DNA from: a virus
Taxonomy: Duplodnaviria > Caudoviricetes
IMG/VR virus record: IMGVR_UViG_3300043654_000022
Location: 1 to 56,972 of that record
Strand: one strand, 5' to 3'
DNA: 56,972 nt
Shown: one piece after another, positions 2,142 to 49,808 of the stretch
Layout of the letters: every line of letters begins with the position of its first letter
Numbering within the stretch: position 1 is the stretch's first letter
Notes under the pieces: generated by a model
Database searches by the model: none
What the model was told of the DNA's origin: nothing
The model's input: only the letters and a program-made list of their open reading frames with translations
Made by a program: the position numbers and the translations under genes

Positions 2142-2220
2142 CGTGGAATGGGAGAGTCTGGCCGTCTCCGCTCGTTTTGGAAACGAGAGAACCTTGGTTC
2201 AAATCCAAGTTCCGCGACCA
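2142..2220 (+). tRNA. tRNA-Pro(TGG)
   Basis: ctcgt-ttTGGaa-acgag, T-loop ttcaaat, CCA. Confidence 0.9.
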
Positions 2221-2290
2221 TTTTTGTGGCGTAACAGACCACGATTGAAGTAAATCGTTCTCGGACGTAAACCGAGTGGTTGAGTTCAGT

Positions 2291-2366
2291 TCCACTCTGG
2301 TCCAACAGGTAGGACACTTCACTGTTAATGAAGAGGGTCTCCGTTCGAATCGGAGGGGTGGAGCCA
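2291..2366 (+). tRNA. tRNA-Asn(GTT)
   Basis: cttca-ctGTTaa-tgaag, G73 CCA. Confidence 0.92.
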
Positions 2367-2375
2367 ATTTTTTAC

Positions 2376-2449
2376 GGGGTCGTCGTCCAGTGACAGGACG
2401 CTCGACTGTCTATCGAAGAACGGGGGTTTGATTCCCCTCGGCCCCGCCA
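2376..2449 (+). tRNA. tRNA-Asp(GTC)
   Basis: tcga-ctGTCta-tcga, G73 CCA. Confidence 0.9.
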
Positions 2450-2726
2450 TGATGTTGCAACAGTGCCGCAATGCTCCGGGTCGCCCCCGCGAAGCAGACT
2501 CGCTAGCTGGTTAAGGGTCAGAAGGCACACGGGACTTGAAAAATCCCCAAGGCGCGTCCGGGAACCGCGCGTTGATAAATAGTTCCTCGGATTTGTGTCC
2601 AGCACGGAGATATTATTGTGCTGGCAAAGCCAGTAGTGATTCACGTTTGGTAGCCGAGATAAATTGGTAACTCGGTGCCGACTGCCGAAAGGCCCGAACC
2701 GTGCCTCACGCCAATTGATTTTCTGT

Positions 2727-2811
2727 AGCCTCTTGGCGGAACGCATACGCTCTGGTTTTAGAAACCAGCGCCCGTAAGGGATTGAGAGTTCAAGTCTCTC
2801 AGAGGCTACCA
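2727..2811 (+). tRNA. tRNA-Leu(TAG)
   Basis: ctggt-ttTAGaa-accag, long V-arm, A73 CCA. Confidence 0.9.
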
Positions 2812-2957
2812 AGTTTTGGCTGAGTATGCTTCGCCGTGAAAACGGAATGAAGACCAACCAGCGGCTACGAGCCGCAAAGTTTGTACGTACATCGGTAGGG
2901 GGTGCCGCAATCATCCCCAGCCACTCTATTGCAGAGGGTGAAATAAAGAATTTCAGA

Positions 2958-3033
2958 CTCCTCGATTCTCGGACGGACGGGTACCGCACTTCTAAGGCGG
3001 ATTTAGAGAGTTCGAATCTCTCCGAGGGGTCCA
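2958..3033 (+). tRNA. tRNA-Arg(TCT)
   Basis: loop ctTCTaa, T-loop ttcgaat, CCA. Confidence 0.85.
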
Positions 3034-3178
3034 GTTTTTTCGTGGGTAGGTGTGACAACCGGGAGGCGAAACGAAAAAGCGGGAATTAGGATATGGTGTC
3101 TTCCCCCGCCGCGATGCAATCGTGAATCCGGTCTAGTCAACTGGAGTGCTTTGCACTGTGAGGACGCCACGATTTTTA

Positions 3179-3253
3179 GGGCTGCTCGTATATCGTATAA
3201 TGCACAGCGCTACGAACGCTGGGAGCGGGGTTAGACTCCCCGGTGGCCCTCCA
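3179..3253 (+). tRNA. tRNA-Arg(ACG)
   Basis: cagcg-ctACGaa-cgctg, CCA; T-loop ttagact. Confidence 0.88.
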
Positions 3254-3260
3254 TTTTAAT

Positions 3261-3347
3261 CGCCTGCTGGCGGAATTGGCAGACGCAGCGGATTCAAAAC
3301 CCGCCGCCCGAGAGGGCGTTAGAGTTCGAATCTCTAGTTGGCGACCA
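3261..3347 (+). tRNA. tRNA-Leu(CAA)
   Basis: loop ttCAAaa, long V-arm, A73 CCA. Confidence 0.9.
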
Positions 3348-3379
3348 TTTTGAAATCCATTGACTACGGTCAGGTGATT

Positions 3380-3799
3380 ATGAACAGCAACCAAAGAAAA
3401 GATGCAACGCTAGGAATGCCTCACGGCACCGCGAGTGGCAGACTTCGGAAGATGATTTTGTTCAATCTTTTGAAAAAGCACGGCGAGAATTCCTGCCATG
3501 CTTGCGGAAAGCCGATTGATTCTGTAGATGCTTTGAGTATTGAGCACAAGAAACCGTGGGAAGGGGTATCGGCTGACTTGTTTTGGGATTTAGAAAACAT
3601 AGCGTTTTCGCATCTTCGATGTAATACTCCGAACCGCCCTTACAACAATGGTGGGTGGAACAAGAAACCAGCCCCAGAAGGGATGGCGTGGTGCATCGGA
3701 CATCAAGTATTCGAACCAGTCGAAAACTTTTGGAAGAACGCAAGTTTTTGGAATGGTCTTGAGAAGTACTGCAAGACGACCAAGATTCGAAATAGATAA
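3380..3799 (+). CDS. HNH endonuclease (free-standing, inside tRNA array)
   Basis: CHACG...SIEHKKPW...NIAFSHLRCN. Confidence 0.85.
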   Translation: MNSNQRKDATLGMPHGTASGRLRKMILFNLLKKHGENSCHACGKPIDSVDALSIEHKKPWEGVSADLFWDLENIAFSHLRCNTPNRPYNNGGWNKKPAPEGMAWCIGHQVFEPVENFWKNASFWNGLEKYCKTTKIRNR

Positions 3800-3806
3800 A
3801 GATTTT

Positions 3807-3890
3807 GCGCGTGTGGCGGAAAGGCATACGCAGGGCACTTAAAACGCCCCGCCGAAAGGCATGAGGGTCCGACTCCCTCGGCGCGCACCA
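3807..3890 (+). tRNA. tRNA-Leu(TAA)
   Basis: loop ctTAAaa, V-arm gccgaaaggc, CCA. Confidence 0.9.
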
Positions 3891-3926
3891 AGTGACAAAG
3901 GCCCGACGCGAGTCGGGTCGGAGATT

Positions 3927-4000
3927 GCACGAATCGGCAAGTGGTAAGCTAGCTGTCTGCAAAACAGCCATCGCGTGTTCGATTCACGCTTCGTGCTCCA
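3927..4000 (+). tRNA. tRNA-Cys(GCA)
   Basis: gctgt-ctGCAaa-acagc, U73 CCA. Confidence 0.92.
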
Positions 4001-4080
4001 AGTTCGTCGGCCCTATTCACGAAGACAAGCCGAATCGTTTCTTCTCCGCGTTGGTAACGAAAACTCAAAGCGGAATATTT

Positions 4081-4355
4081 TGGTAGCGTAGACGAACGCG
4101 GTGAGAAACCCGAGAGGGCTATAAGCCGAGGAAAGTCAGGCCATATCTCAACGCCGCTTTGTGGAAGTTGCAAGACGCGTAAGCGTACGAGTAAGGACCC
4201 ATAACCGAAAGGTTCATTCGAGTGGGGTAACTCTCAGCGGATGTAAGTTCGAATAGGACCGGAGCGCTCGTTGAGCACAATGATGGTCGGGTTGAACGCA
4301 CAGAGGAATGTTCGTCACCGCGCAAGCGGAACAGAAGCCTGCTTATTCGTTGCCA
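4081..4355 (+). ncRNA. rnpB: RNase P RNA, compact (~275 nt)
   Basis: P1 tggtagcg/cgttgcca; CR-I GAGGAAAGTCAGGC; CR-IV AGAGGAATGTTCGTC; CR-V AACAGAAGCCTGCTTA; P6 tcaac/gttga; P7 ccgct/agcgg. Confidence 0.93.
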
Positions 4356-4398
4356 CTAAATTTTAGTTTTGTACGTACGCACGATAAGCGAGTTCAGT

Positions 4399-4473
4399 CG
4401 GTTGCTAGTGTCAAAGTAGCACAGCAGGCTCTTAACCTGACGAGTGAAAGTGCAAGTCTTTCGCGACCGACCA
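4399..4473 (+). tRNA. tRNA-Lys(CTT)
   Basis: cagg-ctCTTaa-cctg, CCA; T-loop tgcaagt. Confidence 0.85.
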
Positions 4474-4588
4474 ATTTTCGAAAGAGACGTGCTCCGCGCA
4501 CGAGAGCGAAATAATGCGGCGGCGGGCGAATGACGCCCTCAGTCTACCAAGACGTTACGAAGAGGTGGAATGCCTCAAAAGTTTCTGT

Positions 4589-4664
4589 ACCCGATTATCA
4601 AACTGGTCGTATGAACCTCTCCTACAAAGAGGCTGGCAGAGTTCGATTCTCTGATTGGGTACCA
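4589..4664 (+). tRNA. tRNA-Val(TAC)
   Basis: cctct-ccTACaa-agagg (C33), A73 CCA. Confidence 0.85.
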
Positions 4665-4671
4665 ATTTCTG

Positions 4672-4760
4672 TGGGGACGCAGTTCGCGGTAGAGTGAACG
4701 CTTGCGACATCCGGTACCGGACTCGTAAGATGGCGGGGGTGAATGACCCTCGGGTTCCCA
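4672..4760 (+). ncRNA. tRNA-like RNA with an extended, closed anticodon arm
   Basis: four-arm cloverleaf; anticodon loop replaced by tccggtaccgga palindrome; ends ccca. Confidence 0.5.
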
Positions 4761-4766
4761 GATTTT

Positions 4767-4857
4767 TGTCGGTAGCATCAGTATGCAGCGCGGTTTTATA
4801 AACCGCGAAGCTCCAGATGAGAGCGCCGAGAGTGGGCAGCACACTCACCGACAACCA
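4767..4857 (+). tRNA. atypical tRNA-Ile(TAT) with long variable arm
   Basis: tgtcggt/accgaca acceptor, gcggt-ttTATaa-accgc, 4-nt D-loop, T-loop ggcagca, A73 CCA. Confidence 0.75.
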
Positions 4858-4859
4858 AC

Positions 4860-4933
4860 GGCCCTGTCGTCTAAAGGCAGGACTTCCGCTTCTCAAGCGG
4901 AAAACGGCGGGTCAGTACCGCCCGGGGCTACCA
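4860..4933 (+). tRNA. tRNA-Glu(CTC)
   Basis: tccgc-ttCTCaa-gcgga, CCA; T-loop gtcagta. Confidence 0.88.
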
Positions 4934-4972
4934 AGTTTGAAAATGTAAGAGGAGCAGTTTTAAGATACTCTC

Positions 4973-5263
4973 ATGGCAAACAACTATAACTCGAATCCGA
5001 TTTTCATCGACAGCATAATGGCGGCAACCGCGAAGAATAGCGGCGCGACAACGACCAACTCGTTTCATATTAAAGAAATCGTGTGGAGCACACCCGGAAG
5101 CACCGCGGCAGATTCCGCCGTAATTCAAGACGGCTTGGGTAATGAAATTTTCGAACAACAATCGGGCCGAGCAGCACCTGAACTATTTAATCCACCGATG
5201 GTTATAGATGATTTCAAAGTAACAACTTTGGCAGATGGACACATTCTGATTTATTTGGTATAA
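4973..5263 (+). CDS. hypothetical beta-rich protein
   Basis: clean ORF between tRNAs with GAGGAG upstream. Confidence 0.7.
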   Translation: MANNYNSNPIFIDSIMAATAKNSGATTTNSFHIKEIVWSTPGSTAADSAVIQDGLGNEIFEQQSGRAAPELFNPPMVIDDFKVTTLADGHILIYLV

Positions 5264-5282
5264 AGCATAAGTTCAAAGATTC

Positions 5283-5376
5283 TCTCGTGTCGCTGTAAAC
5301 TATCGGCCTGTAGGTGAGCATAGGCGTCCGCTCGATAAGCGGAAGGTAGCTGGTTCGAATCCAGCGACCAGAACCA
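5283..5376 (+). tRNA. tRNA-Ile(GAT), aberrant 5' half
   Basis: tccgc-tcGATaa-gcgga, canonical T-arm, ACCA; imperfect acceptor with extra sequence before the D-arm. Confidence 0.6.
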
Positions 5377-5458
5377 ATTTCGAAGCGACACGGGTCCCGC
5401 GTACGCGGTACGTCGTCAACGGTGGGGAAGCCCGATGGGCCACCGAAAAATTTTTAAT

Positions 5459-5532
5459 CGCAGCGGAGAATTGGTATTCAAGTCTGTCTCATAAGCAGAC
5501 CTCCGAAGGTTCGTTTCCTTCCCCTGCGACCA
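5459..5532 (+). tRNA. tRNA-Met/Ile2(CAT)
   Basis: tctgt-ctCATaa-gcaga, A73 CCA. Confidence 0.85.
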
Positions 5533-5546
5533 ATTTAGGAGACCCG

Positions 5547-5885
5547 ATGATTGAACAAGCATGGACTAGTTTACAAGTCGCAGGTCTCGCGGCATTGACG
5601 TTGACCACGGTTCTTACGGCTCTTGCAGACGGCTACACGACGATGATTGGCATAGAGCACGGAGACGCGGAAAAGAATCCGCTTATCAAGTGGCTCTTCT
5701 CCAAACTAGGCCAGCAACTCACGCTGTTCCTCACGACGGGCGCGGTTCTCTTCGGCGGCGCGATTATCGCAGCGCACACGATGGCGGGTGGCTTCTTGTA
5801 CTTCGGCGCTATGACAGTTAGTCGCGGTATCCGCGCGCTGTTGAACTATCGCTTGTTGAAGAAGCAGAAGATTAGTTTGAAGTAA
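5547..5885 (+). CDS. membrane protein, DUF5658-like
   Basis: three hydrophobic segments; D..TT..G...G..E.NP motif; AGGAG SD. Confidence 0.7.
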   Translation: MIEQAWTSLQVAGLAALTLTTVLTALADGYTTMIGIEHGDAEKNPLIKWLFSKLGQQLTLFLTTGAVLFGGAIIAAHTMAGGFLYFGAMTVSRGIRALLNYRLLKKQKISLK

Positions 5886-5988
5886 GATTTTGAGTAGTGC
5901 CACACGACCCGCCTGACGTTTATGGTAGTCGTCCAGATGCTTTGTTCGGATAAAGGTAGTCCGTCCGTGACGCCGCTCCAGTTTCTAT

Positions 5989-6064
5989 GCCTCGTTAGCT
6001 CAGAAGCAGAGAACTCGGTTCTAACCGAGGGGTGGTACGGGTCGCGTCGTACACGGGGCTTCCA
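5989..6064 (+). tRNA. tRNA-like gene with 6-nt anticodon loop (ttctaa), identity unclear
   Basis: gcctcgt/acggggc acceptor, tagctcag D-arm, ctcgg/ccgag stem, 8-nt T-loop, CCA. Confidence 0.6.
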
Positions 6065-6071
6065 GTTTTGA

Positions 6072-6145
6072 GCCGATGTAGTTTAGTGACAGAACTTTTC
6101 TTTGGTAAAGAAAAAGCCTAAGTTTGATTCTTAGCGTTGGCTCCA
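6072..6145 (+). tRNA. tRNA-Thr(GGT)
   Basis: tttct-ttGGTaa-agaaa, CCA. Confidence 0.9.
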
Positions 6146-6154
6146 GTTTTCAAA

Positions 6155-6229
6155 GCCGAACTAGCTCAATGGTAGAGCGGCGCTTTTGTAAAGCGACGGT
6201 TCGCGGTTCAAGTCCACGGTCCGGCTCCA
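6155..6229 (+). tRNA. tRNA-Thr(TGT)
   Basis: canonical D-arm, loop ttTGTaa, CCA. Confidence 0.92.
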
Positions 6230-6247
6230 GTTTTGTAGCTACAATTT

Positions 6248-6296
6248 GACGGGGTGCCTTGAACACCCCGTCTCACTCTTTCAAGGAGGGTGAAAA
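6248..6296 (+). promoter_or_regulatory. kissing-hairpin leader covering the HNH gene SD
   Basis: loop ccttgaa complementary to loop ttcaagg, which overlaps AGGAGG. Confidence 0.65.
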
Positions 6297-6866
6297 ATGA
6301 AATATAAATGTGTTCGGTGTGGTGTTGAGTTTTTCAGAAAGCACGGTGCTAGAAAGTATTGCTCCGTCGCCTGTGCCCAGAGAAGACTAGAAGGCGAGTG
6401 CGCCGATTGTAAGAAAGTCATTTCAGCCAATAAGGTCCGATGTGCAGATTGTCGAAACAAGATACGAGATGAGTGGCCCGAAAAACAAAAGATTCAGAGA
6501 AGAGAAAACGCGTATAGAATAAGTCGAGAGCCGCGCGGTCGATTTCACAGGCTTAAGAAAAATTTGAAAGACGAGAAAGTCCCCTCATCAGACCCTATCT
6601 GGAATTTTAATTTTTATGCTGCTTTGATACAAGATGAGCAGTGTCATTACTGTTTCGGTCCTCTGAGTCCGACAGGACACGCGTTAGACAGAGTAATAAA
6701 CAGTTTGGGACACACGGCGGGTAATGTTGTTCCTTGCTGTTAGCCCTGCAACACTATTAAAGGAAAGTACTGGGAGTATGAGCACATGATGTTGCTTGCC
6801 CCCAAACTTAGAGGTCTAAGAATTTCAAAGCTGGAAGCGCCCGATGGCAGGGCACCTCTTTCGTAA
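6297..6866 (+). pseudogene. Zn-finger HNH endonuclease interrupted by in-frame TAG at 6741
   Basis: CHYC...LDRV...NVVPCC*PCNTIKG; frame stays open to TAA 6864-6866. Confidence 0.75.
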
Positions 6867-6904
6867 AGAGTTCTCCAAAGGTTCAATTCCTTTTTCTAGC
6901 TCCA
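6830..6904 (+). tRNA. tRNA-Thr(CGT)
   Basis: ctct-ttCGTaa-agag, CCA. Confidence 0.88.
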
Positions 6905-6914
6905 ATTTTTCTGA

Positions 6915-6988
6915 GCGGGACTGGCGTATTGGCAGCGCGACAGTCTTCCAAACTGTAGGAAAGGGTTCAACTCCCTTGTTCCGCTCCA
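6915..6988 (+). tRNA. tRNA-Gly(TCC)
   Basis: acagt-ctTCCaa-actgt, U73 CCA. Confidence 0.92.
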
Positions 6989-11863: not shown

Positions 11864-14179
11864 ATGTTGACCGCAGAAGAGAGAAAAGAACAAGCCCGCC
11901 GTAGAAAGGCAAATCAGCGTGCTCGTGAAAAAGGTCAACCGGAGCCGTACAAGGTTACTGAGGAAGAAAAGGCTTTTAAGAAAGTGCGCGAGGAGCAATA
12001 CGAGAAAGACCTTGCGTGGGCGCGCCAACAAGATGCGAGTGGGAAGTTTTACAAAGAAGAGTGCCGTGGCACTGAGCAGCTTCTCGCAATCTATTACGGC
12101 AACAACACCGGAGTAGAGGAAGAGGACGACGAAGAAGGGTCGGAAGCCAACAAGAAAAAGAAGGCTCAGCAGAATATGCCGAACCCGGCGATTCAGCCTA
12201 TCCGTATTCTTGCGTCGGAGACTGTCGAAAATGGCGAGCGCGTACTCATCAACCCGGATGACGTGAAGTACCAAGGTTTCTACGAAGTCAGTAAGGTGCT
12301 GGCGTTCCGCGAGTGGTTGGATTATAGAAGCAAAGGCCGCCGCGATTTGTTTTGGCTTTCAGGTCTTCTGGATAAGCCTTTATTTCACGACGTTCATCAC
12401 CTCATTTGCGACATGTTTGTGCAAAAGAATTTCACGGGTAGGTACTATCCGGGGTTCAACCGCCACACCGTGAGCGCGATAATTAATTCACAAGTGCGCT
12501 TTTCAGCCGACGGGTCACCGACCCGAACCGCTTTGATTTTTGCTCCTCGCGGCGTGTGGAAGTCGACTATCGACGGCATCGATGCCGTGCAGTGGATGTT
12601 GAACGCACCAGACGTTCGCATCATGATTATTACGGCGTTTCGCACCCTATCAAAACAGTTTTTGAAGGAAATTAAGAGTTACTTCTATTTGCCGCCGCGC
12701 GGCGAGGCTACGGCATTTCAGTTGTTGTACCCAGAGTACGTTCTTACAGGCTTAGCGGGCCGCTCCAGAGAGCCGCTCGAATGCCCAGCCGCCACATTGA
12801 AATCGAAGGAACCCCACTTGTGGGTCACGTCGATGGAGTCGTCCATTACAGGCCAGCGCTGCGATATTTGTAAAGCAGACGATATCGTGGACCCGAAGAA
12901 TTCGACCGATGAGGTGATGAGACAGGGCCTCGTTGACAAGTTCAACGGAGCGTTGAACCTCACTGAACCTTGGGGATTCATCGACACCATTGGCACACGC
13001 TACTTCACAGACGACTATTACGGCACCCGTATGCAGGCGGATGAAGACGGCACTGTTGCGCCATTCTCTTTGTTGAGTTTGTCGGCGTGGTATCCGAAGC
13101 CGGGATTTGAGGTCACGTATCAGCGCCTTTTGGAAGAGCCGAACGGCATGTCGCAGGTCACCGAAGACATGGTCGATTTGCTGTTTCCATTCAAACTGAA
13201 TTTCGTCACCTTGCGTCGCAAGCTGTTAGACACGAAAGAGCGCAAGTCAACGAACATTCAAAAAGAACGCAATTTCCGTAACCAGTATTTGAACATTGCA
13301 ACTGACCCAGCAGAGGTCAGTGAGTTCACCGTACACTTCGAGATGCAGACGCTCCGCAGCATGACGTATGCATTGTCTGCCGCACCAACGGCAGGCGAGA
13401 CGTTCGTATCGATTGATTGGGCGTACTCGGACGGCAAGACCTCAGACTACTCGGCGTTGGCGGCAGTTCGTCGCCACACACGCGCGGATGGAACTTACGA
13501 GCTAATCGTTTTGGAAGTTCTGTTCGGTAAATGGAAGTCCTCAGTGCTGGCCGAAAAGATTGTTCTGTTCTTGAGAAAGTATCAGCCCGCCGCCACCTTC
13601 ATCGAGAAGGCGCTGGGACATGATTTGCTTCACACACTTCTTGTTTGGAACGCTGGCCGCTACCAAGTTGATTTGAGTCGCGTACAATACGTCCCAACAG
13701 GAAACACAAAGAACGAGAAAGCAAACCGCATCAAGACTTTAGAAGTCCTCGTAGCCGCGGAGCGCCTGCACTTTGTGGCAGGTCCGTGGATTGACGAACT
13801 GTACAAGCAGTTCGAGGGCTTCACAGGCGATACAAAGAAGGGCAGAAAAGACGACATTCCAGACGCAATCTCTCGTGTTAGCAAGACGCTCCCGTCCACG
13901 ATGTTTACGGGAGTCGAGTACGACGAGATAGAAGAGAAGCGTTTGGCAGAAGAAGAAACAAAGCAACTCCGTAAGGCGCACCACTACAACACGTACTTTG
14001 GGACCAACTACGGCGGCACAATAAAGTACCCCGGCCCGCCGTCAACACAGGCCCCAACCGTTCGACAGTGGTTAAACGGTGGAACACTGCCGCCGCTGAC
14101 AATCACCGAAGTTGCACCAGCGAAACCGCAGGACCCGAGAATGAAAATATTCGGCAATAGAGGTCCTTGGAGACTTTAA
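11864..14179 (+). CDS. terL: terminase large subunit
   Basis: Walker A APRGVWKST, Walker B ICKADD, coupling IGTRY, nuclease SIDWAYS..SDYSA and KDDIPDA. Confidence 0.93.
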   Translation: MLTAEERKEQARRRKANQRAREKGQPEPYKVTEEEKAFKKVREEQYEKDLAWARQQDASGKFYKEECRGTEQLLAIYYGNNTGVEEEDDEEGSEANKKKKAQQNMPNPAIQPIRILASETVENGERVLINPDDVKYQGFYEVSKVLAFREWLDYRSKGRRDLFWLSGLLDKPLFHDVHHLICDMFVQKNFTGRYYPGFNRHTVSAIINSQVRFSADGSPTRTALIFAPRGVWKSTIDGIDAVQWMLNAPDVRIMIITAFRTLSKQFLKEIKSYFYLPPRGEATAFQLLYPEYVLTGLAGRSREPLECPAATLKSKEPHLWVTSMESSITGQRCDICKADDIVDPKNSTDEVMRQGLVDKFNGALNLTEPWGFIDTIGTRYFTDDYYGTRMQADEDGTVAPFSLLSLSAWYPKPGFEVTYQRLLEEPNGMSQVTEDMVDLLFPFKLNFVTLRRKLLDTKERKSTNIQKERNFRNQYLNIATDPAEVSEFTVHFEMQTLRSMTYALSAAPTAGETFVSIDWAYSDGKTSDYSALAAVRRHTRADGTYELIVLEVLFGKWKSSVLAEKIVLFLRKYQPAATFIEKALGHDLLHTLLVWNAGRYQVDLSRVQYVPTGNTKNEKANRIKTLEVLVAAERLHFVAGPWIDELYKQFEGFTGDTKKGRKDDIPDAISRVSKTLPSTMFTGVEYDEIEEKRLAEEETKQLRKAHHYNTYFGTNYGGTIKYPGPPSTQAPTVRQWLNGGTLPPLTITEVAPAKPQDPRMKIFGNRGPWRL

Positions 14180-16323
14180 TGGCAGACCCGTTCGAGAATG
14201 TGGACACAAGCAGCTTAGAGCAGAGTGCCCACGATAAGGCTATTGCTGCACTGGCGCAGACGCCTGCGAACGAGATTACGGACGAGAACACGTATCTTGA
14301 TGCCGACACCGGAACGGTTCAGTTCAACGATACGGCAGCCATCAAGTTGGTCATCGACAACACCGCGATGGCTGACAACTACATGAACATCAACCAGTGG
14401 GCTTCGGGTTGGACAATGGCGGACTTGCTGTACCAGTCACCCGTGTCCGGCAACGGGGACGGCGCTACTGACGTGGCGACCTCCGCGGTTCCGAAGTTCA
14501 TGGTTTCTAATCACATCTCATCGATTGTGCCGAAGATTATGGGCGGCATTTTCTATGAAGACCCGTGCTTCTTGCTGCGCCCGTCACCGGGCACCACAGA
14601 GCAAGTGATTCAAGCGAAGACGGCAATCTTTGAATTTCAATTGAAAGCAATGCGCTTCGAGGAAGAAGTCGAGCGCGGCTTGGAACAGATGGCCTTGTTG
14701 GGCACCGCGATTTGGAAGTGGGGCTACACCGAGTACAGTAAGAAAGAGAAGAAATACAAGCGCTACGCCGACAAGACAACAATTGCCGATGGCGAAGGCA
14801 CAATCGAAATCGATACGCCGGAATCGGATGACTTTGAAATCGAATTTTACGACAAGGAAGTCTCCCACCCTTGGTTGAAGTATTGCGACATCCGCACGGT
14901 CCTCGTGGACCCGGGATGCCGTCAAGGCGACATCCGTTACGCCAAGTGGGTGGTCTACCGCGACTACGCAACGTATCAGGATTTGAACAAGCTGCGCGAC
15001 ATGGAAGGCTACGACATCCCTTCGGAAGAAGTTTTGAAGGCGATGTTTTTGAAGCCTCACACGGGCAGCAAGCCGGACAACATCTCGATGACCATCCCGG
15101 AAGGGATGTTGGGTTATTTGCAGCACGCAACCCCGAGAAACCAAGCAAACACCGCGGACCCAACTCGCGCGCCGTTGGAGATTTTGGAGTACTGGGACAG
15201 CGAGAAAGTTATCGTTGTCTTGATGTATAACAGCAACTACATTCTTATTCGCAACGAGCAGAATCCGTACGGGAAGATTCCTTTCTACTCGGCAAACTGG
15301 CGCAACATCCCGGATTGCTTTTACGGGCAGGGCCTAGGCCTGCTAATTGGTAGCGAGCAAATCGTTGAGCAAGGCGTAACAAACCTCGCACTAGACCTGC
15401 TTGCTTACTGCTTGCAGCCCGTGGCTCTACGTAAGAAAGGATTCAACGCCCCAACGCAGAACACACGATGGGAACAGGGCGGCATTATCGACGTTGAAGA
15501 AGACGTTGAGAAGGCCTTTAAGTTCCTACAAATGCCGACTCCTCCTCAAGAGGCGTTTGCCTTCATCCAGCAATCACAGAGCGCGGGCGCGGCCACATCG
15601 GGCGCGAACGAGCAAGTTATGCAGGGCGCTGGACACGCAGGCATTTCTACGACGGGTATGAGAAGCGGGACGGGAGCAGCGGCGGTTGTTGCAGCCAACG
15701 CATCGCGTCTTGATGGACCAACCGGACGCTTCGTACGCCAAGTGTTCGAACCTTGGTTGCACCAGATGGACGACCTTGACAACGATTTGTTGCCGACCGC
15801 CGTTCTTCGTGACATTTTAGGCGACGAGATTAGTGAGTCCTTCAAGGTTGACCACATTGACTACCGTAACTCGGAAGTCAAGTATGAGGTCTTGGCGGGA
15901 GCAAATCTGGGAGCGAAGAAGGAAATGGCGCAATTCTTACCAGTCCTCATCCAGATGTTCACCAACCCAATCTTTTTGCAGGGTGTCAAGGACGCCGGAC
16001 ACAAGTTCGACGCTCTTGCAATCTTCCAATCATTCTGTGACGCAGCAGGATGGAAGTTCTCTCAGAATTTCGTCGTTCCGATGACGGACCAAGAGAAGGC
16101 AAAAGAACAGGCAAACAGCCCAGCAGCGTTGCAGGCGGCGCAAGCACAAAGCGCCAAGGCAATGCAGGACGCTAAGTTCAAACAAGAACAGACCTTGGAA
16201 AACCAGAAACAACTTGGCAAGGCTGGCAACGAAGCTGTTCGAGCTTCGATTGAGAAATCAACTCAGCCCGAGTACCTAGGTACGAATAATACCGAGGGCT
16301 TCGGCTCAACTACAAGTTTGTAA
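14179..16323 (+). CDS. portal protein
   Basis: follows terL; LLGTAIWKWG, NPYGKIPF, FYGQG motifs; Gln/Ala-rich C-terminus. Confidence 0.88.
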   Translation: MADPFENVDTSSLEQSAHDKAIAALAQTPANEITDENTYLDADTGTVQFNDTAAIKLVIDNTAMADNYMNINQWASGWTMADLLYQSPVSGNGDGATDVATSAVPKFMVSNHISSIVPKIMGGIFYEDPCFLLRPSPGTTEQVIQAKTAIFEFQLKAMRFEEEVERGLEQMALLGTAIWKWGYTEYSKKEKKYKRYADKTTIADGEGTIEIDTPESDDFEIEFYDKEVSHPWLKYCDIRTVLVDPGCRQGDIRYAKWVVYRDYATYQDLNKLRDMEGYDIPSEEVLKAMFLKPHTGSKPDNISMTIPEGMLGYLQHATPRNQANTADPTRAPLEILEYWDSEKVIVVLMYNSNYILIRNEQNPYGKIPFYSANWRNIPDCFYGQGLGLLIGSEQIVEQGVTNLALDLLAYCLQPVALRKKGFNAPTQNTRWEQGGIIDVEEDVEKAFKFLQMPTPPQEAFAFIQQSQSAGAATSGANEQVMQGAGHAGISTTGMRSGTGAAAVVAANASRLDGPTGRFVRQVFEPWLHQMDDLDNDLLPTAVLRDILGDEISESFKVDHIDYRNSEVKYEVLAGANLGAKKEMAQFLPVLIQMFTNPIFLQGVKDAGHKFDALAIFQSFCDAAGWKFSQNFVVPMTDQEKAKEQANSPAALQAAQAQSAKAMQDAKFKQEQTLENQKQLGKAGNEAVRASIEKSTQPEYLGTNNTEGFGSTTSL

Positions 16324-43581: not shown

Positions 43582-44100
43582 CTAAAGGCTAAATCCAAGT
43601 CCGGCCTTCTCAGACCAGTCCTTGCGTGCGGAAATTTCGGAGCCCACCTTGGTGTAGCGGGCGGTGATGTCTTTGGCCGCGTGGCCTGCCCAAAACTTCA
43701 CCAGCGTCTCCGGGACGTTGGCGAGTTGCAGGTGAGTGATGCGAAAGCGACGAAGGGAGTGGAAGCCTTCCAGCCCCAAGGCTTTAAACTTGCGGCGGTA
43801 CTGGCGCTCCGATTGGGGGAACATCGGGCCTTCTAGATTCGCGAATTGCGAACGCAGAAGGGCGTTGATTTCCGGGGCGAGGTCAACAATACGCTTCCCG
43901 GCCCGGGTCTTCGGGCCCGTCTGGAAAACACCCTCTACAAGGGTCCCAGAGACCGTAATCGACCCCTGTATGGGGTCCCAGACGTTGCCTTGCCCGATAG
44001 CCAGCGCCTCCCCAATTCTGAGACCAGAGCCTGCTAAGAGGACGATAAGTAGCCTCAATCGGCTATTAGGCGCTCTGTGAGACGACTTTTCAAGAATCAT
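43582..44100 (-). CDS. tyrosine integrase, catalytic half
   Basis: GLRIGE, HSLRR, AGH, TARY intact; own GGAGG SD before ATG 44100. Confidence 0.88.
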   Translation of the reverse strand: MILEKSSHRAPNSRLRLLIVLLAGSGLRIGEALAIGQGNVWDPIQGSITVSGTLVEGVFQTGPKTRAGKRIVDLAPEINALLRSQFANLEGPMFPQSERQYRRKFKALGLEGFHSLRRFRITHLQLANVPETLVKFWAGHAAKDITARYTKVGSEISARKDWSEKAGLGFSL

Positions 44101-44506
44101 GGGTCTTTTCCTCCACCGAGGGTAATTCTGGCTTATAAACGATTCTAGGGCCATTTACGACAATTGCTAGAATATCGCTTTTCATTCGCTCTTTGGATGT
44201 GGTAGGTTCCCCTTTCTTGTTTAAATATCCGGTGCGTACTTCGACGGTGAAAAGAAGTGAACCTCTCTTGACCACTAAATCCGAGGAACCCCAAGGACTA
44301 ACATTTCTATAAACTTCAAATCCTTTATGAAGCAAATCAGCAGAGACAAGTAACTCGCTTTCTGCCCCCAAATTTGACCCTTTTGCTTTAGAATCCGAGC
44401 GAACGTTTTCCCAATGCCTTTTTGACCCACAGCGCGAAGAACAAAATTTCGCTGTTTCCTGCTTATTAGGGTCAAGAGTTTTTCCGCATCTCCAACATTT
44501 TCTCAT
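44090..44506 (-). CDS. PD-(D/E)XK homing-type endonuclease with Zn finger
   Basis: CWRC..FCSSRC; G..SE..V..DL...G.EV...DLVV...VEVRT. Confidence 0.8.
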   Translation of the reverse strand: MRKCWRCGKTLDPNKQETAKFCSSRCGSKRHWENVRSDSKAKGSNLGAESELLVSADLLHKGFEVYRNVSPWGSSDLVVKRGSLLFTVEVRTGYLNKKGEPTTSKERMKSDILAIVVNGPRIVYKPELPSVEEKTHDS

Positions 44507-44969: not shown

Positions 44970-45071
44970 TCAACCTTTCCGCTTCCGTTTTCGGGCACGT
45001 TTCTTCCCTTTCTTGGGTTTGTACTGGAGAACCTTGTCCACCAGTTTCTCTAGCTCTTTCGGCGGCTTCAT
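44970..45071 (-). CDS. 33-aa basic peptide coupled to the transposase
   Basis: ATGA overlap; MKPPKELEKLVDKVLQYKPKKGKKRARKRKRKG. Confidence 0.55.
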   Translation of the reverse strand: MKPPKELEKLVDKVLQYKPKKGKKRARKRKRKG

Positions 45072-45982
45072 GCGGTCAACCTCTTGTAAGTGATTCGCTT
45101 TCTCGCGGTAGCGTCTACGAGACTGGCGAGGCGGTCTAAGGTATGGCGTTCAACACGTCCAGCATTCAAACGGAACGTAAATTCGTTGACGTAGCGGCCA
45201 AGATGCTTGCGGCTGGCACGGTGATAGACGCCATGCATCTCGCGCTTCATCACAGCCCAAACGGACTCAATCCCGTTCGTGCTCACGTCTCCGCGAACGT
45301 ACACGCCGTCTCTGTGGTTCACGGATTCATGCTTGTAGCCGTTGGTAAGTCCGATATAGCTACGGTGTTCGTCAGTCAGGAGCCGAGAGCCGGGAAGTAC
45401 GTTCTCCGCAATCGTGCCTTGAATCGTCGCGCTGTCGTTTCGGTCAATCGGCATCGCAGTGGTGCGACCGCCGCGTTCCCGCATTCCAATTACAGCGACC
45501 TTGCCGACCGCTCCGCGTCCTTCGTTGAGTTTCTTATTCTTGTGTTTGTTGCGCTCCAAGCCGCCAAAGAAGGTTTCGTCTACCTCAATCGTGCCTTGCA
45601 GAACATCGGTGTCGTTCCCGCAAGCCTCGCGGAGCCGCTGCAAGACGAACCATGCGGACTTCTGAGTAATCCCAATCTGTTTAGCCAGTTGCAAGGAAGA
45701 GACGCCCTTACGGGCCGTCAGGAGCATGTACATGGCGTAAATCCATTTGTGCAAAGGAACGTGCGACCGCTCGAATATCGTGCCAGTGCGAACGGTAAAG
45801 TCCAACTTGCAGGCGTTGCACCGATAGAAACCCTCTTTGCGTGCCGTGATTCGCTCGCCAGAGTTGCACGTTGGACACTTCACGCCATCTTTCCAGAGAC
45901 GGGATTCGAGGTACTTGCGAGCCGTTTCCACGTCAGGGAACAACTTGAAGAGTTGGAAGGTGCTGATAGTAGAACGGCTCAT
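45068..45982 (-). CDS. IS1595-family DDE transposase
   Basis: Zn ribbon CPTC/CNAC, EVDET, TDE..SY, NH, TNGIESVW, Y..EF.FR.N. Confidence 0.95.
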   Translation of the reverse strand: MSRSTISTFQLFKLFPDVETARKYLESRLWKDGVKCPTCNSGERITARKEGFYRCNACKLDFTVRTGTIFERSHVPLHKWIYAMYMLLTARKGVSSLQLAKQIGITQKSAWFVLQRLREACGNDTDVLQGTIEVDETFFGGLERNKHKNKKLNEGRGAVGKVAVIGMRERGGRTTAMPIDRNDSATIQGTIAENVLPGSRLLTDEHRSYIGLTNGYKHESVNHRDGVYVRGDVSTNGIESVWAVMKREMHGVYHRASRKHLGRYVNEFTFRLNAGRVERHTLDRLASLVDATARKRITYKRLTA

Positions 45983-48326: not shown

Positions 48327-48490
48327 TGTCTGTCATCCTTGTACGGCTTTGCAACCGTCTCAAAAACTTCCGCAAGATATCGCACCTTTTCACCTGTCGC
48401 CAGTATGGTGATGTCGTAGAAGCCACCACCCTCTGACTTGGTGGCCTCCACGACAATCCCGGCGACGAGGTACTGGTTACTTTTTTCCAT
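48323..48490 (-). CDS. small protein (55 aa, not in ORF track)
   Basis: fills the gap exactly; ATGA coupling. Confidence 0.55.
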   Translation of the reverse strand: MEKSNQYLVAGIVVEATKSEGGGFYDITILATGEKVRYLAEVFETVAKPYKDDRQ

Positions 48491-49808
48491 CGCTCAACCC
48501 CTTAACACAAACGAGTTGCTTAATTGCGAGCACTGGCTCAACAAGGTCACTTTGACTCGCCATAACGTCATCAATCGGCTTGTAAGCCCCCGGCGTCTCG
48601 TCAAGCACGCTGAGGGTCTTGTCGCAGTAGACGCCAAACGTTGCCGCTTGGTGGTCGGCTACTGTGAACTCTTTCAAAGCCTGCGTTCGGCTCATCGCGC
48701 GACCCGCGCCGTGGGAGCAAGAGTTGAATGAATCCTTAGAGCCGAGTCCGCGGGCGATGTACGTCTTAGCGCCCATCGAACCGGGAATGATTACCCAATT
48801 ACCTTTCGATGCGTCCACCGCCCCCTTGCGGGTCAAGATGGTGTCGCCCAAGATACTCGCGTAGTTGTGGTGCATGTGAATCACCGATGGCGCATTCAAA
48901 TCCATGTACCCGTCTTGTGTTGCGCCGATTGCCGTCAATACGCGCTGCATCATAATCTCGCGATTAATCCACGCGAACTCTTGCGCGAGTTTGACCGCGC
49001 TGAGATAGTCGTTGTATTCTGGTGTGTCCTTCGGCAGGTAGCCGAGGTCCTTGTTCGGAAGCTGAACTCCCCACTTCTTGCATAATTCCCCAGCTAATTT
49101 GGTGAAGTATGTACCGATGCGATTACCAAATCCGCGCGAACCTGAGTGAATCACAACCCAGAGGTTCGAATCAGGGTTGTCGATTTCAGCGCAAACTTCA
49201 ATGAAGTGATTTCCGGTGCCGAGCGTACCCAAGTGGCGCTCCGCGTTCTTCGAAAGTGCGCCCGGATGACGGGTGAATATGGATTCTGGATGCTCCCGAG
49301 AACCAAGCAGAGAATGCACGCCCGTTACTCGGCTATCAAAATTTTCACGCCAAATCTCTTGAATGTCCGATGGCACTTCGCCCCATGCGCCGCGGTCACC
49401 CAGCCCGCCGTCGTTGGTGCGCCCGTGCGGCACCGCAGTTGAGATATAAGAGAAAAATTTAGCTTCCACGCTTGCGTGACCGCCTGATTGGTACTCGTCA
49501 TCAAGTTCATCAAGACGCAGGTTGGTTCGAACTGCCATCATGCCGCAGCCGATGTCCACACCGACCGCTGCGGGCATCACAGCGCCCACCGTGGGGATAA
49601 CGGACCCAATAGTTGCGCCCATGCCCCAATGCGTGTCCGGCATAGCAGCCACGTACGGCTTCACGAACGGCATTGAGGCGACCTCGTCAAGCTGCTTCAA
49701 AGCCGCGTCTTCAATCGTGACGTGCTTGTTCCACAACTTGATTAGTTTGTTGCCCACCGCTCGGGTGTTGTAGTTCTTTTGAACCATCTTTTCCTTTGGC
49801 AAATTCAT
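48477..49808 (-). CDS. rtcB: RNA-splicing/repair ligase RtcB
   Basis: MPD.H.G.G..IG, GVDIGCG, GTLG.GNHF.E, HSGSRG, HHNY, RKGA, IIPGSMG, SHGAGR, DE.PGAYK. Confidence 0.96.
   Translation of the reverse strand: MNLPKEKMVQKNYNTRAVGNKLIKLWNKHVTIEDAALKQLDEVASMPFVKPYVAAMPDTHWGMGATIGSVIPTVGAVMPAAVGVDIGCGMMAVRTNLRLDELDDEYQSGGHASVEAKFFSYISTAVPHGRTNDGGLGDRGAWGEVPSDIQEIWRENFDSRVTGVHSLLGSREHPESIFTRHPGALSKNAERHLGTLGTGNHFIEVCAEIDNPDSNLWVVIHSGSRGFGNRIGTYFTKLAGELCKKWGVQLPNKDLGYLPKDTPEYNDYLSAVKLAQEFAWINREIMMQRVLTAIGATQDGYMDLNAPSVIHMHHNYASILGDTILTRKGAVDASKGNWVIIPGSMGAKTYIARGLGSKDSFNSCSHGAGRAMSRTQALKEFTVADHQAATFGVYCDKTLSVLDETPGAYKPIDDVMASQSDLVEPVLAIKQLVCVKGLSDGKK

Follow-up and report, generated by a model that had tools for sequence, protein, structure and literature searches.

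A 56,972-base IMG/VR virus record, analyzed in its full length and referred to here as the window, encodes on its plus strand, at positions 4080 to 4360, an RNA resembling the RNA subunit of ribonuclease P (RNase P). [quoted passage not shown] When the region was scanned with cmscan using permissive filters, it matched the Rfam family of bacterial class A RNase P RNAs (RF00010) with 80.9 bits and an E value of 4.1e-25, covering model positions 1 to 367. A search of the whole record returned the RF00010 match at the identical place (E value of 1.4e-26). Depending on the end that is chosen for helix P1, the RNA is 275 to 281 nucleotides (nt) long. An earlier reading of the same letters, the original prediction, had put its length at about 275 nt and had described it as a phage-encoded variant with an intact catalytic core but no recognizable conserved regions (CR) II and III.

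The Infernal alignment to RF00010 contains P1 to P3, CR-I, P5, P7 to P11, P15, P16, the GGGU of loop L15, CR-IV, P2' and CR-V. The blocks CR-I, CR-IV and CR-V follow one another in the order of the family, and P4 with a bulged U, the P6 pseudoknot and P15 with the L15 GGU were found as in other members. Absent among the family features are a score at the gathering level, CR-II and CR-III, together with P13/P14 and P18, which are common but not universal. The alignment thus bore out the inventory of the original prediction, which had listed CR-I, CR-IV, CR-V, P4, P6, P7 to P9 and the L15 GGU as present. Together with ten related viral RNAs described below, the window RNA forms a set of 11 distinct sequences, referred to as the clade, in which the pairing of each helix could be followed.

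All elements lie on the plus strand. The 5' strand of P1 (4080-4088) is homologous to an identical strand in the clade members L254, L256, L257 and L261. The 5' strand of P2 (4091-4097) pairs with 4310-4316, with seven of seven pairs formed in 11 of 11 sequences and double changes at six of the seven positions. It is followed by the P3 hairpin (4099-4128), which is irregular and varies in length within the clade, and by CR-I (4128-4140). The latter includes the P4 5' strand with its bulged U (4133-4140), whose partner (4338-4344) lies within CR-V (4330-4345); all cells of P4 are paired, and both sides change in four of its seven pairs. P5 joins 4142-4144 to 4241-4243, again with 100% pairing and with changes on both sides in two of three pairs. 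The J5/7 strand (4147-4153) forms the P6 pseudoknot with 4269-4275, where both sides change in four of seven pairs; according to an anchor-based count, P6 comprises 6 to 7 bp in all 11 sequences.

The arm formed by P15, P16 and P17 (4247-4297) was delimited from the Infernal alignment and the covariation counts. It comprises P15 (4247-4250 with 4294-4297) and P16 (4257-4260 with 4285-4288), harbors the 3' strand of P6 (4269-4275) and carries GGGUU on the 3' side of L15 (4289-4293); CGGGU does not vary among the 11 sequences. CR-IV (4300-4310) and the 3' strand of P2 (4310-4316) follow, with no P18 between P15 and CR-IV. A P19-like hairpin, CCGC-GCAA-GCGG (4318-4329), lies between P2 and CR-V. 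This short form with a GNRA loop occurs in four clade members (the window, L253, L255 and L258), the hairpin is longer in L262, L264 and L265, and none is found in L254, L256, L257 and L261. The RNA ends with J4/1 and the 3' strand of P1 (4346-4360), the pairing register of which is ambiguous. A near-copy of the P1 5' strand was observed at 4052-4061, 29 nt upstream of the homologous strand. It pairs at 10 of 10 positions with 4346-4355, better than the homologous strand does, and may point to an alternative 5' end, to a duplication or to a processing hairpin.

Conservation of this architecture among phages was evident at several levels of divergence. Phages related through their large terminase (TerL; 43 to 47% identity in four relatives) carry a 325-nt homologue in an upstream tRNA cluster. 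This homologue, L125, scored 79.6 bits against RF00010, and its alignment with the window RNA displayed compensatory substitutions across most helices. When viral contigs were scanned for the P8-P9-J10/11 signature, 14 loci were obtained, which correspond to 10 distinct RNAs besides that of the window. Nine clade loci were scanned with the family model, and all nine matched it end to end with 74.7 to 102.6 bits, two of them (102.6 and 102.0 bits) exceeding the gathering score. TerL is 28 to 54% identical to that of the window in nine of the ten clade records, the tenth being a 20% fragment. In the five records in which both could be placed (G005, G006, G008, G009 and G010), the RNA is located 7 to 11 kb upstream of terL on the same strand. 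Two of the relatives that were searched have direct terminal repeats and are 100% complete, with sizes of 101 to 105 kb.

To count covariation, the 11 distinct sequences were aligned using MAFFT without any tuning of register (alignment A2), and helices P4 to P10, P15 and P16 were projected from the window. In A2, 94.0% of 468 cells pair, compared to 78.0 ± 1.0% in shuffles, none of 500 reaching the observed value, and 31.0 to 39.7% when the partners were slid by one to three columns. Both sides change in 25 of 43 pairs, compared to 13.7 in shuffles and 4 to 10 when slid. The P4 and P6 pseudoknots both covary. Alignment A2 scrambles P2, P3 and the 3' strand of P1, and the pairs of P1 and P2 were counted by the anchor method only. 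This second count covers 61 positions, with the registers of P1, P6, P7 and P10 picked to maximize pairing, and it found 644 of 664 cells paired (80.9% or less in shuffles) and double changes at 43 of the 61 positions. The window differs from the other ten sequences at six of the 91 columns that are invariant among them; four of these six changes make up two compensated base pairs. By these sequence comparisons, the RNA is a conserved variant and not a decayed remnant, in line with the original prediction, which had considered it a new variant; its intact core and unrecognizable CR-II and CR-III recur in the alignments of the clade, so it is not a one-off. The strict clade signature had no match in cellular genomes of 185,579 species. 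A looser version of the pattern returned a single cellular locus, L267, which was dismissed as a chance match carrying no RNase P signal.

The specificity domain (S-domain; 4154-4240) is where the RNA departs from its family. In the Infernal alignment, the CR-II consensus of RF00010, ACAGAAAacAgA, aligns to gaps in the window RNA. The P12 block is reduced from 28 to 14 nt, the block of CR-III and P13/P14 from 49 to 12 nt, and that of P18 from 24 nt to none. CR-II, CR-III, P13/P14 and P18 had been reported as not apparent in the original prediction, and listing the missing model columns did not recover CR-II or CR-III. The remainder of the domain is retained. P7 (4154-4158 with 4236-4240) shows changes on both sides in five of five pairs and leads into the P8 hairpin (4159-4173), with the conserved loop GGAAGU, and the P9 hairpin (4174-4188), with a GNRA loop (GUAA); L8 and the L9 GNRA loop are invariant or close to invariant in the clade. 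The 5' strand of P10 (4189-4191), J10/11 with the sequence UAA (4192-4194) and the 5' strand of P11 (4195-4201) follow. J11/12 consists of a single U (4202) at the site of the CR-II strand. Beyond it, a minimal P12 hairpin of 12 nt (4203-4214) contains 4 bp and a GAAA loop; it is the shortest P12 of the clade, the others having 14 to 69 nt. The J12/11 strand, CAUUCGAG (4215-4222), occupies the position of CR-III and contains the T-loop-like core UUCGA. The 3' strands of P11 with an AA bulge (4223-4232), P10 (4233-4235), P7 (4236-4240) and P5 (4241-4243) come next, after which J5/15 reads UAA (4244-4246); it is CAA in the other ten sequences.

The same order of elements, namely, J10/11 UAA, the P11 5' strand, a U as J11/12, P12, CAUU[C/G][G/A]AG and the 3' strand of P11, which bears a small bulge rich in A, was found in 10 of the 11 sequences. 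In these, the inner five base pairs of P11 covary and the length of P12 is highly variable. The clade is devoid of P18, with a small UUCG hairpin at its site in L253 only. Adding 28 metagenome loci resulted in 41 loci with a complete S-domain, representing 27 distinct sequences. The exact motif CAUU[C/G][G/A]AG is present at the CR-III position in 23 of these 27, and the J11/12 position next to it is U in 20 and C in 3 of the 23. Two others (L283 and L293) retain a UUCAA core without the exact motif, and one (L278) counts among the 27 through an artifact of the J15/16 anchor, leaving L255 as the only S-domain truly without the motif. As a sequence pattern only, UUCGA, UUCAA or UUGGA occurs in 25 of the 27. 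This UUCRA or UUGGA core fits what we take to be the T-loop pattern, U-N-N-N-A, which in tRNA extends from T54 to A58 in the form UUCRA.

In canonical RNase P RNAs, CR-II on the 5' side and CR-III on the 3' side of this junction form a pair of interdigitated pentanucleotide T-loops onto which the tRNA elbow docks (PMC4919913, PMC4919922), where they contact its D and T loops (PMC4919922). In the phage RNA, the CR-II side of this junction is essentially deleted, while the CR-III side has kept its length but carries a different conserved sequence. Since P7 to P12 are retained, the strand at the CR-III position is conserved and the elbows of the phage tRNAs are ordinary, the S-domain looks to have been remodeled and simplified rather than discarded. 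CAUU[C/G][G/A]AG and the single-U J11/12 would then form a simplified, T-loop-type platform that contacts the tRNA elbow and replaces the canonical pair of interdigitated T-loops.

The RNA is surrounded by its presumptive substrates. A cluster of tRNA genes on the plus strand (2142-6988) contains 16 tRNAs found by ARAGORN, all on that strand, and one found by Rfam (4399-4470); the RNase P-like RNA sits between tRNA-Cys (3927-4000) and the Rfam-only tRNA. The 3'-CCA is encoded by 16 of 16 ARAGORN tRNA genes, and CCA also follows the 17th. The elbows of these tRNAs appear ordinary, with a UUYRA T-loop in 12 of 17 and a D-loop GG in 14 of 17. The cluster tRNAs are likely both substrates and cotranscripts of the RNase P-like RNA. 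Concerning the 17th tRNA (4399-4473), it was missed by ARAGORN, has an Rfam score of 45.8 bits and begins 38 nt 3' of the RNase P-like RNA; its anticodon, assigned by eye, is CUU (Lys). The record itself has an estimated completeness of about 54%, and the phage is roughly 100 kb in size. The record encodes TerL (11864-14179) and a portal of the SU10 type (14167-16323), along with a GH108 lysin and proteins resembling tail fibers. These proteins, and the related genomes that are complete with terminal repeats, agree with the view of the original prediction that a bacterial-type RNase P RNA is carried by a phage. BLAST searches with the RNA and with the first 25 kb of the window returned no match among deposited phage genomes.

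The arrangement suggests how the RNA could act. It would be transcribed together with the cluster of CCA-encoding phage tRNAs and would be catalytically active in infected cells, removing the 5' leaders from phage pre-tRNAs. In a sequence scan, neither a promoter-like site immediately upstream of the RNA nor a plus-strand terminator-like site within the cluster before about position 6057 was detected; the best promoter-like sites were located at 1698-1861, upstream of the first tRNA. The L15 GGU, whose known partner is the 3'-CCA of tRNA (PMC4919913), would pair with the 3'-CCA that the phage tRNA genes encode. For a phage with 17 tRNA genes and the tRNA ligase RtcB, the benefit would likely be extra or host-independent processing of tRNA 5' ends.

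A protein partner encoded by the phage was not detected. The search of the window record with PF00825 (RnpA) gave no candidate with an E value of 1 or less, as the original prediction had noted for rnpA, in a record that is about 54% complete. The same search gave none in five relatives, four of which are at least 98% complete and two of which have terminal repeats. No RnpA-like open reading frame (ORF) was found within the tRNA cluster, where the small ORFs encode an HNH endonuclease, a hydrophobic protein similar to DUF5658 and others without assignment. As no recognizable RnpA is encoded by the phage lineage, the RNA may pair with the RnpA protein of the host. Bacterial RNase P is described as requiring both its RNA and its protein in vivo, and these two components can be exchanged among species and still complement one another (PMC4919922). 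Taken together with the RnpA searches, this makes recruitment of host RnpA, as put forward in the original prediction, the simplest inference, and we regard it as plausible.

Several observations weigh against a functional RNase P RNA or against parts of the mechanism outlined above. The score of 80.9 bits is below the RF00010 gathering score of 100 bits, and for this reason a default scan at the gathering threshold lists tRNAs only. P1 of the window is weak and ambiguous, with three possible registers, one of them via the upstream near-copy at 4052-4061. The minimum free energy of the single sequence was not distinguishable from that of shuffles (z = -1.17; -1.29 for the other strand), and the promoter and terminator scan is weak, with six promoter-like sites compared to 3.6 ± 2.0 in shuffles. 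In J5/15 the window has a private change from C to U, and in J15/16 one from A to G. An unrecognized phage protein could serve as the cofactor instead of host RnpA, as many ORFs lack a family. The reading of UUCRA as a T-loop is based on a sequence pattern and is best treated as a lead. Loss of CR-II and CR-III could also mean a weakened or altered function, and the two are called a universally conserved contact to the tRNA elbow (PMC4919922). Finally, camelpox virus provides the sole previous case of a virus-encoded RNase P-like RNA that we came across, and that RNA was inactive in vitro (PMC3001073). Taken together, a working phage RNase P RNA that is coexpressed with its substrates, uses host RnpA and has a simplified S-domain is still the most likely reading; the elements of the catalytic domain, CR-I, CR-IV, CR-V, P4, P6 and the L15 GGU, are all present and conserved.

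Other explanations were weighed against the same data. The original prediction had inferred that the RNA is independent of the tRNA elbow; the RNA would then work from contacts to the acceptor stem, the CCA and, through RnpA, the leader only. This is possible but disfavored, and on balance we think it unlikely. In its favor, neither CR-II nor CR-III, the sequences behind the interdigitated T-loops, is present, and J11/12 is down to one nucleotide; against it, all 11 sequences keep a covarying P7 to P11 and P12, with L8 and L9 hardly changing. L255 demonstrates that a clade member can lack the replacement motif, but an 8-nt strand that recurs at the CR-III position in 23 of 27 S-domains, with two more keeping its core, would be unexpected in a domain without a role. 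The viral RNAs L035 (147 nt) and L092 (158 nt) apparently have no S-domain at all, so elbow-free operation seems tolerated in phages, and, on its own, the catalytic domain (C-domain) is described as still active in vitro, at reduced rate and affinity (PMC4919922). On the other hand, the T and D loops of the phage tRNAs are normal, whereas loss of the T-loop module is reported from systems with elbow-less tRNAs (PMC4919913). It is the conservation of the S-domain and of its junction strand that leads us to disfavor elbow independence. A noncatalytic decoy or regulator, which would bind host RnpA or pre-tRNAs and thereby throttle host tRNA maturation or redirect the protein, appears somewhat less likely again. 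No phage rnpA was found, so any bound protein would be that of the host, and a decoy role is discussed for the inactive camelpox RNA (PMC3001073). Such an RNA would, however, damage the phage's own 17 tRNAs. Nine of 11 clade members have an altered P4 at positions that are usually universal, yet these changes are compensated and P4 of the window is canonical. Moreover, the elements that serve only catalysis and substrate positioning are conserved (the bulged U of P4, CR-IV, CR-V, J5/15 and the L15 GGU), and the neighboring substrates encode the CCA that L15 reads.

Two further possibilities fared worse. A host rnpB fragment that was acquired by the phage and is decaying as a functionless pseudogene could account for the subthreshold score, the large deletions relative to the RF00010 model, the weak P1 and a single-sequence fold no better than shuffles. 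We consider it very improbable and rejected it, as it is contradicted by the covariation: both sides change in 25 of 43 pairs, 94.0% of cells pair, and four of the six private changes of the window belong to compensated pairs. Ten further distinct sequences, from phages whose TerL is 28 to 54% identical, share the identical deleted architecture, the divergence of the clade sequences excludes recent copies of one another, and the clade signature occurs in no cellular genome of 185,579 species, save for the one chance match. That the region instead codes for protein, or resembles RNase P RNA by chance, is scarcely credible. Two mechanically called minus-strand ORFs do overlap it, at 3949-4173 (74 amino acids) and 4119-4325 (68 amino acids). 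Both readings were rejected on the E value of 4.1e-25 against a covariance model, on substitutions that compensate base pairs and are not codon-like, and on the location inside a run of plus-strand tRNA genes.

Read as a working RNase P RNA, the phage RNA is closest to, and derived from, bacterial type A, as represented by RF00010, the M1 RNA of Escherichia coli and the P RNA of Thermotoga maritima (PDB 3Q1Q/3Q1R). It shares P1 to P12 and P15 to P17 with these RNAs, P17 being reduced, in addition to CR-I, CR-IV, CR-V, the long-range helices P4 and P6 and the L15 GGU that pairs with the 3'-CCA of tRNA. Unlike them, it is encoded inside a phage tRNA cluster, measures 275 to 281 nt instead of the typical 340 to 420 nt (PMC4919922), lacks P13, P14 and P18, and has CR-II reduced to a single U and CR-III replaced by CAUU[C/G][G/A]AG. 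The clade often carries a P19-like GNRA hairpin, and the window scores below gathering. Absence of P13/P14 and P18 is shared with archaeal type A (RF00373; PMC4919922), and several shorter viral RNAs score best against that model. In contrast to the phage RNA, however, CR-II and CR-III are retained in archaeal RNAs, whose protein partners number four or five; the phage RNA matches the bacterial model best, keeps the bacterial P15 and L15 GGU and resides in a bacteriophage-type genome.

The minimal RNA of Pyrobaculum (type T, named type P in PMC4919922) is likewise a natural RNase P RNA without the CR-II/CR-III module. It has lost almost the whole S-domain (PMC4919922), whereas the phage RNA keeps a covarying P7 to P12; the truly comparable viral cases are L035 and L092, not the window. 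The RNAs of Mycoplasma fermentans and of Candidate Phyla Radiation (CPR) bacteria have also lost P13, P14 and P18, and they were likewise detectable only below Rfam thresholds and required manual refolding (PMC8172020). Absence of P13/P14 and P18 is called "not uncommon" in bacteria, including CPR (PMC8172020). These RNAs differ in being the sole cellular rnpB genes of their organisms. Loss of P12 is called unusual among reduced bacterial RNAs, and the phage RNA keeps a minimal P12; loss of CR-II and CR-III is not reported in the accessible part of the same source (PMC8172020). What is unusual about the phage RNA is that the CR-II and CR-III sequences are lost while P7 to P12 are kept, in combination with the viral location.

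Among viral RNAs, that of camelpox virus is also virus encoded and has a secondary structure similar to that of RNase P RNAs from bacteria and archaea (PMC3001073). It belongs to a eukaryotic virus, was inactive on pre-tRNA in vitro and is not linked to viral tRNA genes; the phage RNA, by contrast, carries every catalytic-core motif and lies amid its presumptive substrates. The theta ribozymes of gut phages, which resemble that of hepatitis delta virus, provide a parallel of a different kind (PMC10879173). They too are phage ribozymes beside phage tRNA genes, and they are proposed to lessen the dependence of tRNA maturation on host RNases. Unlike the RNase P homologue, which would act in trans on 5' leaders, they are small, self-cleaving and proposed to remove 3' trailers. 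For the megaphages included in PMC8172020, only tRNAs and a tmRNA are shown in the part of that source available to us.

Virus-encoded RNase P-like RNAs are widespread and mostly under the Rfam threshold. A scan of viral contigs for CR-V gave at least 118 loci, of which at least 22 were kept after filtering for an upstream CR-I. Most of the loci listed by CR-V patterns alone were chance matches and were discarded. Twenty of the 22 filtered loci (all but L034 and L064) were submitted to Rfam, and 20 of 20 matched the RNase P clan, 19 with RF00010 and one with RF00373, in lengths of 147 to 368 nt. Eight of the 20 reached the gathering score and 12 were below it. Transfer RNA genes were present within the fetched flanks at 18 of the 20. 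Some of these RNAs keep CR-II and CR-III, and others do not. L035 (positions 479-625, 147 nt, RF00373 57.1 bits) and L092 (positions 175-332, 158 nt, RF00010 73.6 bits), both below gathering, appear from their sequences to consist of the catalytic domain only. In both, P5 closes on an 8-nt loop, the GGUAG of which can pair with CUACC of the P17 loop as P6, and each is directly followed by a tRNA gene.

A compensated variant of P4, with AAGUUC instead of AAAGUC on the 5' side and GGCUA instead of GCUUA on the 3' side, is present in 9 of 11 clade members. L256 additionally has a G-C pair swapped for C-G inside P4. Using a second CR-V pattern, the variant was found in at least 37 of at least 120 viral loci. 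Twenty P4-variant loci were sampled, and 14 gave RNase P-clan matches, all below the gathering score. One RNA, found identically in L128 and L131 (contigs of 102 and 58 kb), is larger and combines the same P19 hairpin and the variant P4 with CR-II and CR-III sequences that are recognizable by eye. It may be similar to an unreduced ancestor from which the form seen in the window came. The pattern of P19 and CR-V that was used in this search listed seven loci, three of which (L127, L129 and L130) were rejected as chance matches without RNase P motifs. BLAST searches against deposited phage genomes gave one unannotated partial match for L029 and none for L261. Partial matches to the 3' end of tmRNA were noticed beside clusters of tRNA and RNase P-like RNA genes (L002:1194-1216 and L139:1-30), both cut by the edges of the loci, and some phages may therefore carry a tmRNA beside their RNase P RNA.

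RNase P RNA is regarded as a housekeeping ribozyme universal to cells (PMC4919922). To our knowledge, natural RNAs without the CR-II/CR-III elbow reader occur mainly in Pyrobaculum-type archaea and in organelles with elbow-less tRNAs. CR-I to CR-V are treated as universally conserved in PMC4919922. No description of a phage-encoded RNase P RNA was found in the literature searched, which did not extend to subscription journals and supplements. As most of the viral RNAs scored below gathering in each of three samples (12 of 20, 14 of 14 and 7 of 9), routine annotation would not report them, and this would explain why no such description was found. We put forward a broader proposal tentatively, with rather more doubt than confidence: tailed phages may own RNase P ribozymes within their tRNA arrays that have been pared stepwise, from near full size to the form seen in the window and on to a catalytic domain alone of about 150 nt. 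In the window form, the double T-loop reader of CR-II and CR-III would have been swapped for a single conserved T-loop-like strand next to a J11/12 of one nucleotide.

Provided that they are active with host RnpA, the viral RNAs would be natural minimal bacterial RNase P enzymes. The proposal, if true, would add a new structural solution for docking the tRNA elbow and a previously unrecognized layer of phage independence from host tRNA processing. Besides tRNAs and the RtcB repair ligase, and perhaps a tmRNA in some relatives, phages would then supply a processing ribozyme. A bacterial-type core with a rebuilt S-domain junction would be a natural experiment on the need for a tRNA "ruler," and the CAUU[C/G][G/A]AG junction offers a compact target for structure determination.

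Additional genes of the window were noted. The RtcB tRNA ligase is encoded on the minus strand at 48477-49808 (Pfam E value of 2.3e-108); considered along with the set of tRNAs and the RNase P RNA, the ligase is suggestive of a phage module that both supplies and repairs tRNAs. Two ORFs on the plus strand lie between tRNA genes: an HNH endonuclease (3338-3799; Pfam HNH E value of 7.6e-06) and a cysteine-rich ORF without a family match (6297-6743). Such placement between tRNA genes is a habit of homing endonucleases. Further downstream, the minus strand encodes a short ORF of the phage integrase family (43582-44154) and an IS1595-family transposase (45068-45982; DDE_Tnp_IS1595, E value of 1.6e-40).

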